DNA of 64,000 bases, from assembly GCA_050250855.1 (NCBI GenBank), contig JBFWNW010000002.1, positions 210,719 through 274,718 of the forward strand. The letters are read 5' to 3'. The notes beneath the pieces were generated by a model. The model searched no databases. It was not told the origin of the DNA and worked only from the letters and a program-made list of their open reading frames with translations. Positions 7,567 through 38,377 of this stretch are shown piece after piece; the stretch's first letter is position 1; each line of letters starts with the position of its first letter. A program made the position numbers and the translations under genes. This stretch comes from Candidatus Babeliales bacterium. GTDB lineage: Bacteria > Babelota > Babeliae > Babelales > JACPOV01.

Positions 7567-8304
7567 ATGGCAAAAAAATTAGATAAAAATACGGAAGTTA
7601 TATACGGAGCGCATCCTATTATAGAGTTGCTTAAAGCAAAAAAGCGACGTCTTTTAGAGTTATATACCAGCAAGCCGGTTCCAAAAGCTTTTAAAAAAAT
7701 TGAATCTTTGTTGCCAAAAGGGTTGCCAGTTTCTTATGTTAATCGAGATAGATTAACTGCTTTGGCTGGTACTACAGAGCATCAAGGTGTCGTTGGTCTA
7801 ACAACGCCTTGCATTATAAGAAAAAAATTTTTTGAACCAGACAAGCAACCGTTTTTACTTATGCTTGATGGTATTCAAGATCCTCGTAATCTTGGTGGCA
7901 TTTTGCGTTCTGCCTATTGCACGGGTGTTGATGGTGTTATTATTACGCAAAAAGCAAGTGCACCACTTAATGCAGCAGCATTTAAAGCTTCAGCTGGGTT
8001 AGCTGAGTATTTAGATATTTATTATGCGCCTTCGGCAAAAGCTGCGGTGTTGCAGTTAAAGCAAGTCGGTTATGCAATATATCTTTCCATGCTTTCTGAT
8101 AAAGCAAAAACTGTTACCGATGTTACTTTTAAACAACCACTTTGTATTGTTATTGGTAGCGAAGAAATGGGAATTTCTTCTGATATTAAAGCAGATGGCC
8201 AGGCAATTATTGTACCGCAAAAAAAGGCGGATATTTCTTATAATGCTTCGGTTGCTTCTGGTATTTTGTTGTTTTTAGCTGCTACGCAGTTGGAGCGGAT
8301 ATAG
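7567..8304 (+). CDS. rlmB: 23S rRNA G2251 2'-O-methyltransferase (TrmH/SpoU family)
   Basis: YGAHP, HQGV, LDGIQDPRNLGGILRSA, GSEEMG, SYNASVA motifs; ATG 7567 preferred start. Confidence 0.9.
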   Translation: MAKKLDKNTEVIYGAHPIIELLKAKKRRLLELYTSKPVPKAFKKIESLLPKGLPVSYVNRDRLTALAGTTEHQGVVGLTTPCIIRKKFFEPDKQPFLLMLDGIQDPRNLGGILRSAYCTGVDGVIITQKASAPLNAAAFKASAGLAEYLDIYYAPSAKAAVLQLKQVGYAIYLSMLSDKAKTVTDVTFKQPLCIVIGSEEMGISSDIKADGQAIIVPQKKADISYNASVASGILLFLAATQLERI

Positions 8305-8410
8305 GTATATATTGATTTATTTTTAGATATATTTTTGAGTTTCACGGTTTTTATGCGGGCCATTTTTTTTGTTAATTTTGTTTATTATATTTTTTTAAGT
8401 ATTTAATTAT

Positions 8411-8880
8411 CTCATGGCCCTTACCCAGGGCGGGGCCAGCCCCTTTTGCTTGTACAAAAGGGCTGGACAAAAATACACCAACATGCTGTTGGATCCGCTT
8501 GCTCGCTCAGACATCAACCACTCATCCTTCGGCTTCAGGTCGATGATTCGCTACCGGAGTGAATGTATAAAAAATAGTTTAATGCACCTTGACCCTTCGA
8601 TACAATTTCGATTTCATCGAAATCACTCCCTTCGACAAGCTCAGGACAGGCAGGGTGAGCGCACAGAACTATACTTAGTATCAAAAATAAGAAATTTACA
8701 TAAATGAATTCATTATAACGCGCTCATCTTGAGTGTTTTTCCGTTAGGAAAAATGTATCAGCCTGCCCGGCGAAGCTTTTTAGTCCGAAGAAGTTTTTAA
8801 CGAAGGCGGATTATGCGAAGCCTGGGAAAGATAAAGCGCTTGAAAAGAGGCTGGTCCCGTCCCGGAGAGGGACTGGTAAG
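8411..8880. repeat. Composite palindromic-repeat element (locus A) with imperfect ~37 bp inverted ends and nested REP-like units
   Basis: Left end ctcatggcccttacccagggcggggccagcccctttt resembles the reverse complement of 8843-8880 and of 17633-17668; 8731-8854 matches 17521-17644 (6 differences in ~124 bp) and, inverted, 12180-12262. Confidence 0.85.
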
Positions 8881-9047
8881 ATATACAAAAAACAAAATGA
8901 TTATTAAATTCCCTTAAAACCAAATTTACCTTAAAAAATGAACACAACTTCTGAGCTTTCTTTAATATTATTGACTCCTTAAGCACAAAACTGTTATGAA
9001 CATGGTAGCAGACTATAAAAAGAGGGGCTTTAAAAAAGGGATAGTCA

Positions 9048-9755
9048 ATGAAGCGCATACGCAGTTGCATAGCGCCAGCTATTATTATCTGTTCATCATT
9101 ACTGTTGCTACGCTCGGGATATCAGTATATACAAGCGCCGGGAGAGGTATATATTTCTTTTGATACTGTTCTTTCTTGCAAAGCTGCTCAAGAATTTTCT
9201 GATTATTGTACTGCTACTTTTCCTACGGTTGATCGTGCTACGTTTTGTAAAGTGGCACAAGAACATTTTCCTTATATAAAAGATATAGAAGTGCACCATC
9301 GTATGCTGGGCAAAGATAGACTAAAGGTGGCAGCTTATTATCCATGCTATCGCATTAATGAGCAAAAAATTCTTTTAGAATCAGGATCTTTTATTGATCA
9401 AGATTATTTTAATACAGAATGTAGAGAGGATTTATTTCATCTTTCTTGTACGCAGGACATTGTATTTTCATCCTCGGCAAGGAATTGGTTGCAAGAATAT
9501 GAAGATATTATTTTTGACTCTTTTTATGTAGCATTTAAAAATCCAACAGAGATTATATTAACAGATAAAAAAGATAGTTCTTTTAAAGTTGTTTGTTCAG
9601 AAAAAACAAGAATAGAACAAAAAGCTCTGGATTCGTATGCACAGATAAAAGAAATGATGAAGCGTTCTGGGCGTTTAAAAAAAGGGATATATTGCAAAGC
9701 AGATTTTCGCTTTAAAAATCAGATAATCGTGTCTTGCAAAAAGGGGGAGTCATGA
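9048..9755 (+). CDS. ftsQ: Divergent FtsQ/DivIB-like cell division protein
   Basis: N-terminal TM, POTRA-like FPYIKDIEVH segment, C-terminal DFRFKNQIIV (cf. DLR motif); directly upstream of ftsA-ftsZ. Confidence 0.6.
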   Translation: MKRIRSCIAPAIIICSSLLLLRSGYQYIQAPGEVYISFDTVLSCKAAQEFSDYCTATFPTVDRATFCKVAQEHFPYIKDIEVHHRMLGKDRLKVAAYYPCYRINEQKILLESGSFIDQDYFNTECREDLFHLSCTQDIVFSSSARNWLQEYEDIIFDSFYVAFKNPTEIILTDKKDSSFKVVCSEKTRIEQKALDSYAQIKEMMKRSGRLKKGIYCKADFRFKNQIIVSCKKGES

Positions 9756-11014: not shown

Positions 11015-12178
11015 ATGATCGATTTTGTTGAAGAAAAAAAAGAGTTCAGCGCAGGAGTTTCTATTAAAGTTTTAGGAATTGGCGGTGCTGGCGGTAATAC
11101 CGTAAACAGTATGATTGATGCTGGTTTTGAAGGTATTGATTTTATTGTAGCAAATACTGATGCACAAGCATTACACTTATCAAAGGCACGCAATAAAATT
11201 CAGCTTGGCGTAAAATCAACCAAAGGCCTGGGTACTGGTGCAAATCCAGAACTGGGAAAACGAGCTGCAGAAGAAGATCTTGAAAAAGTAATGGAAGCTT
11301 TAGAAGATGCAGATATTGTATTTTTGACTGGCGGCATGGGCGGCGGCACAGGATCTGGCGCATTGCCCGTTGTAGCGCATGCACTTAAAGAAAAAGGTAT
11401 TTTATCAATTGCTGTTGTTACCAAGCCGTTTGTTTTTGAAGGAAAACGCCGTGCGCAAGTAGCAGAGAATTCTTTAGAACTTCTGAAAAAAGAAATTGAT
11501 ACGTTAATTATTATGCCGAATCAAAAACTACTTGATGTTGTTGATAAACATGTTTCTATGATTGATGCTTTTGCCATGATTAATGAAGTTTTAAATAGAT
11601 CCGTTAAAGGTATTGCTGATATTATTGCAAAAACAGGGCATATGAATGTTGATTTTGCAGACGTTCGCACTATCATGAAAGATATGGGACTTGCTGTTAT
11701 GGGAACGGGCAGAGCAAGCGGCGAAGACCGTGCAGAACTTGCTGCAATGGAAGCAATCGAATCGCCATTGCTTGAGAATATGAGCATTGCTGGAGCGCGT
11801 GGCGTATTGCTTAATATTACGGGCGGCAAAAACTTAGGGCTCCATGAAATCAGACAAGCGGCGAATATTATTTATGAACAAGCTGATGAAAACGCCAATA
11901 TTATTCTAGGTTCTGTTATTGATGATTCGTTAACTGATGAAGTAATTGTTACCGTTATTGCAACGGGCTTTGAATCAAAAAATGCTCAAGAATGCAAAAA
12001 ACAAGAAGAGCCAATGCCGGTTAAAGCTACTATTAAAGATGGTTCAATGCAGTATGAAAAAGTAATGCCAGACTATAAAAAAGAAGAAGCAAAGAAATAT
12101 GAATTGAGCTCTGTTGATGATCTTGATATTCCAACATTTATGCGTAAAAAAGAAGGCACAACAGGAAGAATTGACTAG
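11015..12178 (+). CDS. ftsZ: Cell division protein FtsZ
   Basis: GGAGGN, GGGTGSG, NVDFADV, C-terminal DLDIPTFMRK. Confidence 0.98.
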   Translation: MIDFVEEKKEFSAGVSIKVLGIGGAGGNTVNSMIDAGFEGIDFIVANTDAQALHLSKARNKIQLGVKSTKGLGTGANPELGKRAAEEDLEKVMEALEDADIVFLTGGMGGGTGSGALPVVAHALKEKGILSIAVVTKPFVFEGKRRAQVAENSLELLKKEIDTLIIMPNQKLLDVVDKHVSMIDAFAMINEVLNRSVKGIADIIAKTGHMNVDFADVRTIMKDMGLAVMGTGRASGEDRAELAAMEAIESPLLENMSIAGARGVLLNITGGKNLGLHEIRQAANIIYEQADENANIILGSVIDDSLTDEVIVTVIATGFESKNAQECKKQEEPMPVKATIKDGSMQYEKVMPDYKKEEAKKYELSSVDDLDIPTFMRKKEGTTGRID

Positions 12179-12179
12179 A

Positions 12180-12318
12180 GCTTTATCCTTCCCAGGCTTC
12201 GCATAATCCGCCTTCGTTAAAACTTCTTCGGACTAAAGAGCTTCGCCGGGCAAGCTGATACAATTTTCTACGCAAATCACTCAGGATGAGCGTATATTTT
12301 TATGCGCTCATCTTGTCT
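12180..12318. repeat. REP-like repeat (locus B) directly after the ftsZ stop
   Basis: Inverted copy of 8755-8837, followed by aaatcactcaggatgagcg and the start of a partner unit, gcgctcatcttg. Confidence 0.88.
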
Positions 12319-12380
12319 GTTTTTTTCTTCGTAGTACGCTAACAAATGATTTTAATAAAAAAATATACGGAGAGAAATGT

Positions 12381-13811
12381 ATGATTTCACTTAAAAAAAA
12401 GAGTACTCTAGAAGTAGTATTTGGCGTAACAGCTTTCATTATATTATTGATGATAGGATCACATTTCCTGAGCAAAAGATCATTACAAGAAAAATATATT
12501 GCCGCGGTTATCACCTCATTTAATAATGCACCATGGGTAGAAAAAAATTTAGATTCTATTTTTGCACAAGATTATAAAAATTTTCATATTTTTTATATAG
12601 ACGATTGTTCAACTGATGGTACTGCAGACAAGGTGCAGGAGTATATACAAAAAAGAAATTTAGAAAACTACTTAACGCTTATTAAAAATGAAACACGCTC
12701 AGTAAAAATGCTTAATTTATATAAAATATATCATCAACTTGATGATTGGGCTCTTGTTGCTCAAATTGATGGTGATGATTGGTTGGAAAATAAGCATGTT
12801 TTTAAAACTATCAATGAAGCGTATGCTAAAGATATATGGCTTGCTTATACGCAATTTTCTATGACAACGGGTGGTAAAGGTTCAAATGCAGTGCCACCAG
12901 CATGGGTGCAGTGGCAGGGTGCTTTTAGAAAATATAAGTCGACATGGTTTATGTATAGTCATTTAAAAACTTTTTATGCATGGCTTTTCAAGCAGATAAA
13001 ACTACAAGATTTTATTGATGATGCTACCGGTAAATTTTTACCAAGTAATGATGACGTACTTATGATGTATCCTATGCTTGAGATGGCGCGCAATAATTTT
13101 TCATTTATTCCAAAAAGCTGTTATGTATGGAATGTTTCACCTGGCTTTAGACCGGAGCTACGCTTGCAGAGTAATCCAGATTTTCAAGAACAGTTTTTTA
13201 AAAAACCTGCATATCAAGCGTTTGAAAAAAATCTTTTGAAAAAAATGAATCAAGGCGATTACAAAGTAGATATTATACTGTTGGCTTTGCGTGGTGGAGC
13301 GGATATAGAGCAGTGTATTGATGCTCTTAAAAAAAATGTTTCTGGTTTTACAAAAATTATAGTACTTACACATAAGCTAGAACATGTGCAAGCTATCAAG
13401 CAGGATGATACAATTTCAGTGGCATTACTAGATTCATATAATATAGGGAAAAATCAGCTGAGTGATTATTTCTTGATTATTGATGATGAATATGCATTTT
13501 CTGAAAAAATATCATTACAAGAATGGGCTCAAGAATTAGAAAAAACGAAAGCGGATGCTTTTTATTGCAAGCAGGCACAGGAGCTTTCTTCGTGCTATCA
13601 GCCGTTATATAATTCTTTGTGTGCATGGAAGTATGGTTTTAAAAAATCTGAAGACATTGATTTGAGTAATTATTTTGGACTGTATAGAAAACAGGCAGCA
13701 GATGATATAGTGCAAAAAATAGTATATAATAAAGAATTATATAATCATGATAACTCGGTAGTTGGTTTAGCGTACGAAAAACCTTTACTCAAAAAAATTG
13801 AACATATATGA
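12381..13811 (+). CDS. Family 2 glycosyltransferase, N-terminal membrane anchor, degenerate second domain
   Basis: VITSFN, IDDCSTDGT, IDGDDW motifs. Confidence 0.88.
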   Translation: MISLKKKSTLEVVFGVTAFIILLMIGSHFLSKRSLQEKYIAAVITSFNNAPWVEKNLDSIFAQDYKNFHIFYIDDCSTDGTADKVQEYIQKRNLENYLTLIKNETRSVKMLNLYKIYHQLDDWALVAQIDGDDWLENKHVFKTINEAYAKDIWLAYTQFSMTTGGKGSNAVPPAWVQWQGAFRKYKSTWFMYSHLKTFYAWLFKQIKLQDFIDDATGKFLPSNDDVLMMYPMLEMARNNFSFIPKSCYVWNVSPGFRPELRLQSNPDFQEQFFKKPAYQAFEKNLLKKMNQGDYKVDIILLALRGGADIEQCIDALKKNVSGFTKIIVLTHKLEHVQAIKQDDTISVALLDSYNIGKNQLSDYFLIIDDEYAFSEKISLQEWAQELEKTKADAFYCKQAQELSSCYQPLYNSLCAWKYGFKKSEDIDLSNYFGLYRKQAADDIVQKIVYNKELYNHDNSVVGLAYEKPLLKKIEHI

Positions 13812-17135: not shown

Positions 17136-17380
17136 CAGTTTTAAAAACTTTTGAGTTTTATTTTAAGATTAACGATTTTTTTTGCTTTCATAAATCTTAC
17201 GGCGCCTTCATGCCAGGCGCAGGGCATAAGGGTATTGCGTGCCCAATACCCTTAACACAAGGGCACATAAGAGAAGATCTCTTATGTATCTCTCTGCACT
17301 CATAACTCGGCTTCCAGATTTTTTCCAAAAATCTGAGAAGCTCTCAAACCTATGAGCTTTCAAGGTGCATAAAATTAAAT

Positions 17381-17668
17381 TGACTCTTCGATACAATTTA
17401 CTACGTAAATCTTTCAGAGTGAAAGCGGAATAAAGATAGAAATTATATTTATGCGCTCATCTTGCCTGTCCTGCCGTGCCCGACGTAGCTTTTATGCGAA
17501 GTCTGGGAGTTTATCGAAGGGAGTGTTTTTCCGCTAGGAAAAATGTATCAGCCTGCCCGGCGAAGCTCTTTAGTCCGAAGAAGTTTTAACGAAGGCGGAT
17601 TATGCGAAAGCCTGGGAAAGATAAAGCGCCTGAAAAGGGGCTGGCTCTGTTCCGAATAGGGCCATGAG
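17381..17668. repeat. Composite nested REP-like element (locus C) between convergent secA and galE
   Basis: Convergent pair of palindromic units; the right part matches locus A, with an extra doubly nested insert at 17464-17520. Confidence 0.88.
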
Positions 17669-18722: not shown

Positions 18723-18889
18723 GAGCTTATCGCAAAATTAAAAAACTTTTGCAGTTTTATACTTCGACTCGGGTAAAAACCCTCGCTCAGTATGACCGGG
18801 TTCTCTGTCTCCCTGCCTGTCCTGAGTATTCGCGAAGGGAGCGAGCAGAGTGAGTCGAAGGGTAAATTTATGATTTTTGCGATAAGCTC
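18723..18889. mobile_element. 167 bp MITE-like element (15 bp TIR, TTA direct repeats) carrying a REP-like doublet (locus D)
   Basis: TTA|GAGCTTATCGCAAAA ... TTTTGCGATAAGCTC|TTA; internal tacttcga...ctcagta unit and ccct[insert]gagc...gtcgaaggg unit. Confidence 0.8.
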
Positions 18890-26140: not shown

Positions 26141-26244
26141 TCCGTTCGCCCTGACCCCTCGTCAGCTTTGCAGCCGCTCGGGACTAAAGGCAATTCGAGG
26201 GGAGCATGCCCTGAGCTTGTCGAATGGGTCGAAGGGTGCGAACG
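26141..26244. repeat. REP-like unit with nested inserts, downstream flank of the GIY-YIG gene
   Basis: tccgttcgccctga[...]gtcgaagggtgcgaac is the inverted counterpart of 26537-26570. Confidence 0.85.
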
Positions 26245-26255
26245 ATTTATAATAT

Positions 26256-26531
26256 TTATTTGTTGCTTAACTCTATTATTTTAGTCCAATTGCCATTAAT
26301 TAAAGCGTTTTTCTTTTCTCGTGACCATTCTTTAATTTTTTGTTCAGCAATTAGTGCATCAACTCTTTCCTCAAATTTTTCTAAAAATACTAATTCTATA
26401 GGGAGGCGAGTTGATGTATAGCTTGCATATTTTTTATCATTATGTTCAGCTAATCTCTTTTCAATATTATCTGTATGCCCAGTATAATATGAGTTGTCTG
26501 AACATTTTAGTATATAAACATAAAAATTCAT
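26256..26531 (-). CDS. Small stand-alone GIY-YIG nuclease (UPF0213/SLX1-like)
   Basis: FYVYILKC-SDNSYYTGHT..IEKRLAEHN..YT..RLP..A..AE.KIK.WSREKK.ALI. Confidence 0.92.
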   Translation of the reverse strand: MNFYVYILKCSDNSYYTGHTDNIEKRLAEHNDKKYASYTSTRLPIELVFLEKFEERVDALIAEQKIKEWSREKKNALINGNWTKIIELSNK

Positions 26532-26536
26532 TATGA

Positions 26537-26630
26537 GTTCGTATCCTTCGACAAGCTCAGGACGAATGGAGTGAAGTGCTGAGCGAAGCGTTTACTACTG
26601 AGTATTAATCGAAGTATCAGGATGAACGGA
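26537..26630. repeat. REP-like units, upstream flank of the GIY-YIG gene
   Basis: gttcgtatccttcgacaagctcaggacgaatgga, then tactgagtattaatcgaagta and tcaggatgaacgga. Confidence 0.85.
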
Positions 26631-26636
26631 GAATAA

Positions 26637-37755: not shown

Positions 37756-37831
37756 GAGCCGGTAGCTCAGTTGGTAGAGCAACAGCCTTTTAAGCTGTGG
37801 GTCGATGGTTCGAGTCCATCCCGGCTCACCA
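37756..37831 (+). tRNA. tRNA-Lys (TTT)
   Basis: GAGCCGG/CCGGCTC acceptor stem, TAGCTCAGTTGGTAGAGC D arm, acagc-cTTTTaa-gctgt anticodon arm, GGTTCGAGTCC, encoded CCA. Confidence 0.96.
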
Positions 37832-37965
37832 GTCTTCGTTTATCCGGGCCTTCAGGCTTGGCAAACTTCGACTGGCTACGCCAGTTTTTTAAATAACTCA
37901 GGTGTAAAAAGAAATTTGAATTTAACGCAAAAGCTGTCCACCGTAGCCTTGTGCGAAGGCTGGAC
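37829..37965. repeat. REP-like doublet on the tRNA-Lys 3' end
   Basis: ccagtcttcgttt...aaacttcgactgg hairpin, and oppositely oriented gtccaccgtagccttgtgcgaaggctggac. Confidence 0.75.
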
Positions 37966-38060: not shown

Positions 38061-38138
38061 GTCCCTGTCGTCTAGCCCGGTCTAGGACATCGCCCTTTCA
38101 CGGCGAAAACATGGGTTCGAATCCCATCAGGGACGCCA
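38061..38138 (+). tRNA. tRNA-Glu (TTC)
   Basis: GTCCCTG/CAGGGAC acceptor stem, tcgcc-cTTTCac-ggcga anticodon arm, GGTTCGAATCC, CCA. Confidence 0.96.
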
Positions 38139-38377
38139 TACTTCGCATAAAGCTTCGTATGGCAGGCCATTCTTTTTTAAAGGTTGGTAATAATAAGTGA
38201 AATAAACTAAAAGAAATAAAAGCGAAGTATGCCCTTCGAAGCCTTGGCGTAGTAGGGCAATTTATAAACTATTCAATTTCGCTAACCTGTTCTTCGACTT
38301 GTCCGAAATAACTTGAAAAGCGACGGCGGAAGCTCGAAGAGCGTAGTAGAAAGCTTCGTATGGCAGGCCATTCTTTT
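38136..38377. repeat. REP-like cluster on the tRNA-Glu 3' end, including a triple-nested unit
   Basis: aagcttcgtatggcaggccattctttt occurs twice (~38150 and ~38351); gcccttcgaagccttggcgtagtagggc at 38231-38258. Confidence 0.8.

Follow-up and report, generated by a model that had tools for sequence, protein, structure and literature searches.

The short DNA modules considered here are closest in kind to the small dispersed repeats (SDRs) of cyanobacteria, and two other systems, the repetitive extragenic palindromes (REPs) and Ssn/NTS, are also near. The modules are 23–34 nt in length, lie inside larger hairpins and inside each other, and are found in a 64,000-nt stretch of DNA from a Candidatus Babeliales bacterium (GenBank assembly GCA_050250855.1, contig JBFWNW010000002.1, positions 210,719–274,718 of the forward strand), which is referred to as the window. 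SDRs are about 21–27 nt in size and also nest in one another. One of them, SDR5, has a precise insertion point between bases 3 and 4 of the HIP1 octamer (PMC4390886). Di Nocera et al. (2013, PMC3733652) report that small palindromes are a regular insertion site of REPs, and the Rickettsia palindromic elements (RPEs) are selfish-looking palindromic repeats of a reduced intracellular bacterium (PMC3733652). Ssn, a 94-aa GIY-YIG enzyme, cleaves single-stranded DNA a few bases 5' of a flanking hairpin and does so on only one of the strands; the authors note a likeness of the Ssn/NTS system to an insertion sequence (Chenal et al. 2025, PMC11893778).

The genome is small and of a parasite type; it has 1.22 Mb with a GC content of 36%, is in 11 contigs and is 95% complete. 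The window corresponds to C2:210719–274718, and loci on the other contigs are given in the same form. Three kinds of unit are distinguished: U1 (23–24 nt), U2 (34 nt, with U2-type units of 32–34 nt) and an inner unit, I33 (32–33 nt). The hosts are MITE-A, H1 (a 35-nt hairpin, the commonest in the genome), a 58-nt element, element F and H2. Units are gained precisely at two bonds, in one orientation and without duplication; the sites are independent and a G.A mismatch beside them is conserved. The two bonds, T^GAG in the 5' arm of the host (YYT^GAG) and C^GAA in the 3' arm (the caret marks the junction), are strongly preferred but not exclusive. It is very probable that these are true site-preferring insertions, and at 23–34 nt they rank among the smallest known.

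The MITE-A host hairpin at positions 17453–17629 has both sites filled (features are on the forward strand unless the reverse strand is given). It consists of an outer stem, CTT^GAG, a small central hairpin, C^GAA and the outer stem again. Site 1 (T^GAG) contains a 23-nt U1 at 17464–17520, which is interrupted at its own CCT^GAG into segments 17464–17472 and 17507–17520 by the nested 34-nt U2 (17473–17506). Site 2 (C^GAA) contains a U2-type unit that is 66 nt with its inner unit (17550–17615); the inner unit, a 32-nt I33, is in the loop at 17568–17599, with edges ambiguous by 1–2 nt. The MITE-A at 8720–8839 is empty at site 1, between 8730 and 8731 (empty stretch 8721–8735), and has a 66-nt composite at site 2 (8760–8825). 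Two copies are on the reverse strand. The one at 8592–8662 has U1 at site 1 (8629–8651) and an empty site 2, and the one at 12178–12293 is empty at site 1, between 12282 and 12283 (empty site 12274–12292), with a 65-nt composite at site 2 (about 12192–12256). A 24-nt U1 is also present at 18815–18838, in the CCCT^GAG of element F (about 18762–18872). Element F is a repeat family distinct from MITE-A, and exactly this bond, in CCCT^GAGCGA, is unoccupied in at least four of its other copies. A preliminary description of this DNA had quoted empty and filled alleles from among these, and every string that it quoted is present at the coordinates it gave.

An alignment of four paralogous MITE-A copies by MAFFT shows exact gap edges. 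The copy at C1:308478 has both sites empty, and that at 8720 in the window has site 1 empty and the 66-nt composite at site 2. The copy at C1:113696 has U1 without U2 at site 1 and a 33-nt U2-type unit without an inner unit at site 2, and the copy at 17453 has U1 holding U2 and a U2-type unit holding I33. The series across the paralogues is thus empty, U1, U1 with U2 inside, U2-type unit, and U2-type unit with a 32-nt unit inside. In each of at least five host families (H1, U1, the 58-nt element, MITE-A and element F), the same unit interrupts flanks that are otherwise continuous. The insertion of tiny units into each other, which was the central proposal of the preliminary description, is borne out by this series and its exact edges. 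Fourteen MITE-A copies can be scored clearly, with one further complex copy set aside; for site 1 and site 2, respectively, seven are empty/empty, two filled/empty, three empty/filled and two filled/filled. The two sites are filled independently of each other.

Units stack three deep because U1 brings a new CCT^GAG with it. U2 is found in this CCT^GAG at six places, so that the units are self-targeting as proposed. The third unit enters the loop of U2 and not a Y^GAR site. The U2 at 17473–17506 is identical (34/34) to a copy at C3:220093 that is inside a U1 differing at several positions, which points to a recent gain of U2 by already diverged U1 copies. The junction ambiguity is 0–1 nt for U1, U2 and the C^GAA unit, and hence there is no target duplication, in agreement with the preliminary description. 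The same small ambiguity bears on the opposite polarity, i.e., that the long forms are ancestral and the empty copies arose by precise slippage deletion across palindromes. Palindromes are deletion-prone, and one H1 copy (C1:427329) is without 14 nt of its core. However, slippage normally needs longer direct repeats than the 0–1 nt that flank these units, the presence of the same unit in five or more unrelated host families means that insertion must have taken place at some stage, and each nesting level is found separately. Ancestral long forms are therefore very improbable.

Positions 17268–17567 are covered with 0 differences by a contig of another sample from the same study. Because of this exact match the nested composite is not an assembly chimera, an outcome that the preliminary description had named as one that would contradict it. 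A general artefact, in which composites are assembled from collapsed short repeats, is hardly credible: the public contigs of the source sample do break at the repeats, but the same architecture is present at many loci in this genome and in other assemblies. There is no empty allele at 17464 in the public contigs. A contig joint that skips 8760–8825 was considered as a polymorphism and rejected, as the empty paralogue at C1:308478 explains the joint. In a genome of the same genus, the intergenic regions orthologous to 8304–9048 and 12178–12381 are without any of these repeats; one is a plain terminator-like hairpin and the other is different DNA. Exact junctions are not comparable with this genome because the genes are only about 75% identical, and its contigs tend to terminate at such repeats.

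Junctions were tabulated over the whole genome, as the preliminary description had proposed. A strict flank scan of 20-mers whose exact 10+10-nt halves are found 12–90 nt apart elsewhere gives 372 filled intervals compared with 82 in a decoy, and every event with several empty partners is a hairpin repeat. A looser scan with 9+9-nt flanks produced 7309 loci, for the most part noise with a flat distribution of lengths, and is superseded by the stricter scans. Matches to "empty" sites that rest on a single alignment with one mismatch may be due to chance and are left out as proof. A fuzzy pattern for U2-type units has 46 matches, two of them false, leaving 44 copies in the genome, and these were counted by hand as 10 directly after tRNA genes and 34 others. 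The right flank of the 34 begins with GAG in 12, GAT in one and GAA in six, with a genome background of 0.9% for GAG and 1.9% for GAA. Chance is excluded by the excess of filled intervals over the decoy together with the frequency of GAG after U2-type copies relative to its background; a binomial test on the flanks treats copies as independent and thus overstates the significance. YYT precedes the leader in 13/13 of the GAG and GAT cases, and C precedes it in 6/6 of the GAA cases, so that the second site, C^GAA, predicted in the preliminary description is occupied by six U2-type copies. The hosts at these sites are H1, U1, the 58-nt element and MITE-A. All 19 Y^GAR-site copies are oriented the same way and the reverse context is found in none of the 34, which is the orientation specificity that had been proposed. 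The junctions are non-random, and they show a preference and not a rule without exceptions.

The commonest host, H1, gives a similar picture. H1 copies were aligned to a degenerate consensus with cheap long gaps, and four apparent insertions were dropped where alignments merely bridged two neighbouring hairpins. There are 65 distinct H1 hairpins, of which 42 are uninterrupted. The real length variants (19/19) all fall at consensus positions 10–13, which is the T^GAG bond within the alignment ambiguity, and at least six differ again at a position that corresponds to the C^GAA bond; none is in the outer stem or in the centre of the loop. A topless H1 hairpin, the possible target for larger composites, is not present in the genome. 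The larger composites, and an H1 with the top of an H2, are therefore best read as replacement between the two bonds. This H1/H2 chimera is at about C2:30025–30080 and has H1 outer arms and an H2 top, with the swap exactly between T^GA and C^GA. Some composites look more like replacement of a hairpin top between both sites than like the simple insertion first proposed. At C1:389354–389483 an H1 hairpin contains two tandem copies of the 58-nt element (116 nt), with a direct repeat of about 13 nt at the flanks. Its GA motif is opposite to the orientation of the host, and this element follows a different rule.

The number of U1 copies in the genome is 19, i.e., 18 matches plus the interrupted copy at 17464. 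Five of these are at T^GAG, four in MITE-A and one in element F. Eleven share a single position in a larger composite, which has clearly propagated as a block. Three copies are two bases off a T^GAG and two are in H2 hairpins.

The main rival to site-specific insertion is that units are copied between related hairpins while DNA is replicated or repaired, by enzyme-free template switching or through microhomology. In detail, a nascent strand would stall at the G.A mismatch of an empty hairpin, jump to a filled hairpin that shares the CCT/GAG bases, copy the unit and return. Several of the above properties are consistent with this. Donor and target always have the same few flanking bases, and the T^GAG and C^GAA copies form separate leader subfamilies, as would be expected if copying takes place only between like sites. 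The replacements of hairpin tops and the H1/H2 chimera resemble recombination between stems, and no enzyme is proven. However, the host families have only 3+3 nt in common around the site, which is very short for homology-driven copying, and H1, with its long homology, has only three U2 insertions (one among the 65 aligned copies and two more) where more would be expected. Template switching also leaves unexplained the first insertion into each new host family and the near-identical unit sequence in different phyla (see below). It is unlikely as a sufficient account.

The target is a hairpin with the sequence CCT-GA-G, a 5-nt loop and C-GA-AGG within an outer stem. The GA bases form a tandem G.A/A.G mismatch with Watson-Crick closing pairs. 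In 49 ungapped H1 copies GAG is constant (49/49) and CGAAG nearly so (48–49/49). The pairs just outside covary in these 49 copies, with T-A in 34 and C-G in 15 at one pair and G-C in 31, C-G in 16 and A-T in one at the other. The same GA motif is present in MITE-A, the 58-nt element, element F and H2. By direct reading of the sequences, T^GAG and C^GAA are the two symmetric positions just 5' of each mismatch G on the same strand; the mismatch may be the recognition feature. The position of both sites suggests that the target is read as folded single-stranded DNA and nicked there.

The units have a structure of their own. Each consists of a 3–6-nt leader and an imperfect hairpin that ends in GG, and the leader is GCC(N)TG in U1 and U2. 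The one free stem position of U2 is Watson-Crick paired in 41/41 copies, which come from about 30 genomes and between them show all four pair types; the remaining unit positions are held constant by the search pattern. The C.T mismatch and the G.A/A.G positions of U2 are constant. H1 folds better than shuffled sequences (z about –3). The term "palindromic" used in the preliminary description fits U1 and U2 only loosely; they do form imperfect hairpins but, as discussed below, fold no better than shuffles.

U2-type hairpins are also found as trailers of tRNA genes. In the window, such a hairpin with a nested inner unit is directly after tRNA-Lys at 37829–37884 (reverse strand), antisense to the tRNA and with the CCA in common, and another is directly after tRNA-Glu at 38136–38168 (reverse strand), also with the CCA in common. 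A free-standing U2-like hairpin is situated between the two tRNA genes at 37933–37965. In the genome, 12 of 35 tRNA genes have a U2-type hairpin directly 3', antisense to the tRNA and sharing the CCA. A T-run is located a few bases after the hairpin, and some of these trailers have a nested inner unit. U2-type hairpins after tRNAs are present in other genomes of the order as well.

This association would fit a reading of the modules as functional structural elements under selection, such as terminators, tRNA 3' trailers or protein-binding hairpins, with the composites made by ordinary recombination or duplication. The covarying pairs and conserved mismatches would also fit, as would the orientation of H2-type hairpins, which are sense to the upstream gene in 15/16 intergenic copies. 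On the other hand, selection for function does not explain the exact gain of the same 23–34-nt unit at one phosphodiester bond in unrelated hosts, nor the independent filling of two sites. H1 has no orientation preference toward neighbouring genes, and the repeats have no family match in Rfam, where two tRNAs are the sole matches. A purely functional origin is accordingly regarded as improbable.

A candidate enzyme gene is present in the window at 26256–26531 (reverse strand). It encodes a 91-aa, single-domain GIY-YIG nuclease and is bracketed by inverted hairpins, a composite H1-type hairpin on one side (26143–26245) and on the other an inverted H1-type hairpin with a part resembling the 58-nt element (26536–26631, reverse strand). 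The only Pfam match of the protein is GIY-YIG, and it has no match in NCBIfam. The genome has two small GIY-YIG genes and one GIY-YIG gene of 445 aa, and both of the small genes are bracketed by inverted hairpins, H1-type for the window copy and H2-type for the copy on C1. The second small gene, at C1:93273–93533, is open over 97 codons, and no in-frame ATG, GTG or TTG is seen upstream of its conserved N-terminal motif. Judged from its reading frame, this gene may be decaying or may have an unusual start. Among 11 sampled homologues elsewhere, 8/11 have inverted hairpins on both sides and 3/11 on one side only. Homologues with E ≤ 1e-5 are present in 103/201 genomes of the order, many in multiple copies and some with stop codons. 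They are found in 32/42 of the genomes with the U2 core and 71/159 of those without it, with related genomes not being independent in this count.

As for other enzymes, there are 0 matches to the Y1 transposase family PF01797, with a control positive in 6/14 genomes, and 0 matches to reverse transcriptase and TnpB; as the genome is 95% complete, absence is not proven by these results. A single IS4-like DDE transposase is at C6:1398–1916, in a 473-aa frame on a 4.4-kb contig. Two 54-nt inverted repeats (93% complementary), with U2-type hairpins in them, enclose a 3.1-kb block at C1:113760–117011, which has genes for an RPE65-family carotenoid oxygenase and a TPR protein and one unknown open reading frame. 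This block was considered as a transposon-like unit and rejected, there being no transposase inside. The GC skew on C2 changes from negative to positive near 140 kb, outside the window, and this is likely to be a replication origin or terminus.

The pattern of the U2 core is not confined to this genome. It is found in 42/201 sampled genomes of the order, representing 30/117 genera, whereas the reversed pattern, used as a control, is found in 0. Of 31 U2 copies sampled elsewhere in the order, 27 have a right flank that begins with G. A broader scan covered one genome per prokaryote species and required the U2 core followed by GAG; it is thus uninformative on the frequency of other contexts. It gave 84 stretches, with 81 copies in all, from records titled as Babeliales/Dependentiae/TM6, several Patescibacteria groups, Verrucomicrobia, Alphaproteobacteria and others, a list of phyla that bin contamination could inflate. 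CCT is directly before a 3–4-nt leader in 48/81 of these copies, and therefore the nest of U2 in CCT^GAG exists far outside this genome. A CGAAGG-like arm is found within 30 nt downstream in 44/81.

A mechanism that would fit these observations has three steps. The GA strand would fold when single-stranded; a structure-specific nuclease would then nick it 5' of a mismatch G; and one nick would then receive a leader-plus-hairpin unit, by joining or by copying, or, with two nicks, the hairpin top that they delimit would be exchanged. Present-day mobility, the single-strand state, the nick, the joining step and the enzyme are all inferred. The statement as a whole, that these are precise one-orientation insertions at two mismatch-flanking bonds by way of a folded, nicked strand, with the enzyme left open, is favoured, with less assurance than the insertions themselves. 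The hairpin-bracketed 91-aa GIY-YIG nuclease, which is UPF0213-like and has the layout of the Ssn/NTS system, is the most likely nicking enzyme, but this assignment is a guess with the chances against it. Doubtful is the fullest version, in which a UPF0213-type GIY-YIG protein reads the tandem G.A/A.G hairpin and nicks it, modules of 23–34 nt or hairpin tops are pasted in, and the result is the smallest self-nesting site-specific mobile DNA so far described, which horizontal spread would have carried into Dependentiae, Patescibacteria and further phyla and which would also serve as tRNA 3' trailers.

A number of results weigh against insertion by such a route. As to the site, which had been described as fixed, 15/34 of the non-tRNA U2-type copies are in four or five other contexts: loop replacement in four, a "host X" repeat in three, GATT...AAACC in three, H2 tops in two, and single cases. 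Likewise, about 14/19 U1 copies are outside the T^GAG context. Other junction contexts of U2-type units and U1 include GGGG^GTCGAAG and GGTGA^GGG. Among the 31 copies (29 loci) sampled elsewhere in the order, only five have GAG and one has GAA as the right flank. The claim for T^GAG thus stands as a strong preference and not as a fixed site. Leaders differ by site, with GCNN at T^GAG and A/GGCC at C^GAA, and this difference would also fit enzyme-free copying between like sites. Structurally, U1 and U2 fold no better than shuffles by DNA nearest-neighbour energies (z about 0), and neither strand of the 180-nt composite as a whole shows unusual stability. Filled/empty polymorphism at these loci, which the preliminary description had proposed to look for, is not seen in public contigs. 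With regard to the enzyme, 10 of the 42 genomes that carry the U2 core are without a GIY-YIG match at E ≤ 1e-5, and the nearest solved relatives of the 91-aa protein are the UPF0213 proteins 1zg2 and 1ywl. Finally, there is no significant orientation bias with respect to GC skew (17:8), and the orientation of H1 relative to neighbouring genes shows no significant bias. This lack of bias means that there is no support for a lagging-strand route.

If the insertion rule holds, DNA of 23–34 bases can act as a site- and orientation-specific insertion module, and its target would be defined by a non-Watson-Crick structural motif, beyond sequence alone. This would extend the lower size limit of mobile DNA, and the UPF0213 GIY-YIG proteins, so far uncharacterised, would have a concrete substrate with predicted nicks at T^GAG and C^GAA. 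The build-up of GC-rich hairpin mosaics in intracellular and episymbiotic bacteria with reduced genomes could also be explained in this way. Like the Ssn enzymes, which already attract practical interest, a nuclease that acts on single-stranded DNA and recognises a G.A mismatch hairpin would be of use in practice.

Full-text searches of the literature, limited to the main text of accessible papers, found no description of these hairpins. Several known systems are similar in behavior. The likeness to the SDRs of Nostoc and other cyanobacteria is that both are modules of about two dozen bases with precise insertion in a short palindromic host. The size range of SDRs is approached here (U1 of 23–24 nt, 19 copies, and U2 of 32–34 nt, 44 copies) and insertion is at a fixed position. 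The modules differ from SDRs in that they are from another phylum and probably have other sequences. Their target is a G.A-mismatch hairpin with two symmetric sites, whereas that of SDR5 is HIP1.

Ssn/NTS and the present system both have a GIY-YIG gene of about 91–94 aa between inverted copies of a dispersed hairpin. However, the hairpins here are unlike the NTS/SRM consensus of PMC11893778. Ssn is defined as the cd10448 clade; among solved structures the protein here is closest to UPF0213 proteins, and it matches only GIY-YIG in Pfam. Nesting, or units at a fixed bond, are not described in the accessible text of PMC11893778, where the word "nested" has 0 occurrences.

REPs, in the REPIN-RAYT systems (PMC3116915), are also short hairpin repeats, often in inverted doublets, beside a presumed enzyme gene. 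In contrast to these, no Y1/RAYT gene was found in this genome, and units of a smaller size are nested to a depth of three at a defined bond. A conserved end tag, whether GTAG or CGTC, is absent; GTAG is inside the U2 stem in 21/41 copies, with GAAG in the other 20, and H1 is without GTAG. RPEs are longer than the present units and are known for in-frame insertion into genes, and no fixed bond or nesting rule is reported for them in the summary given in PMC3733652.

Unlike miniature inverted-repeat transposable elements derived from insertion sequences, the units begin with GCC and end with GG and are without inverted ends or target-site duplication. The behavior of the IS200/IS605 elements, and only their behavior, is similar: insertion is next to a short specific sequence, without duplication, with strand or orientation specificity and with recognition of a hairpin. 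They differ in that no Y1 HUH transposase was found here and replication-strand bias was not detected. Each unit has one hairpin in place of two subterminal ones, and is only 23–34 nt in length.

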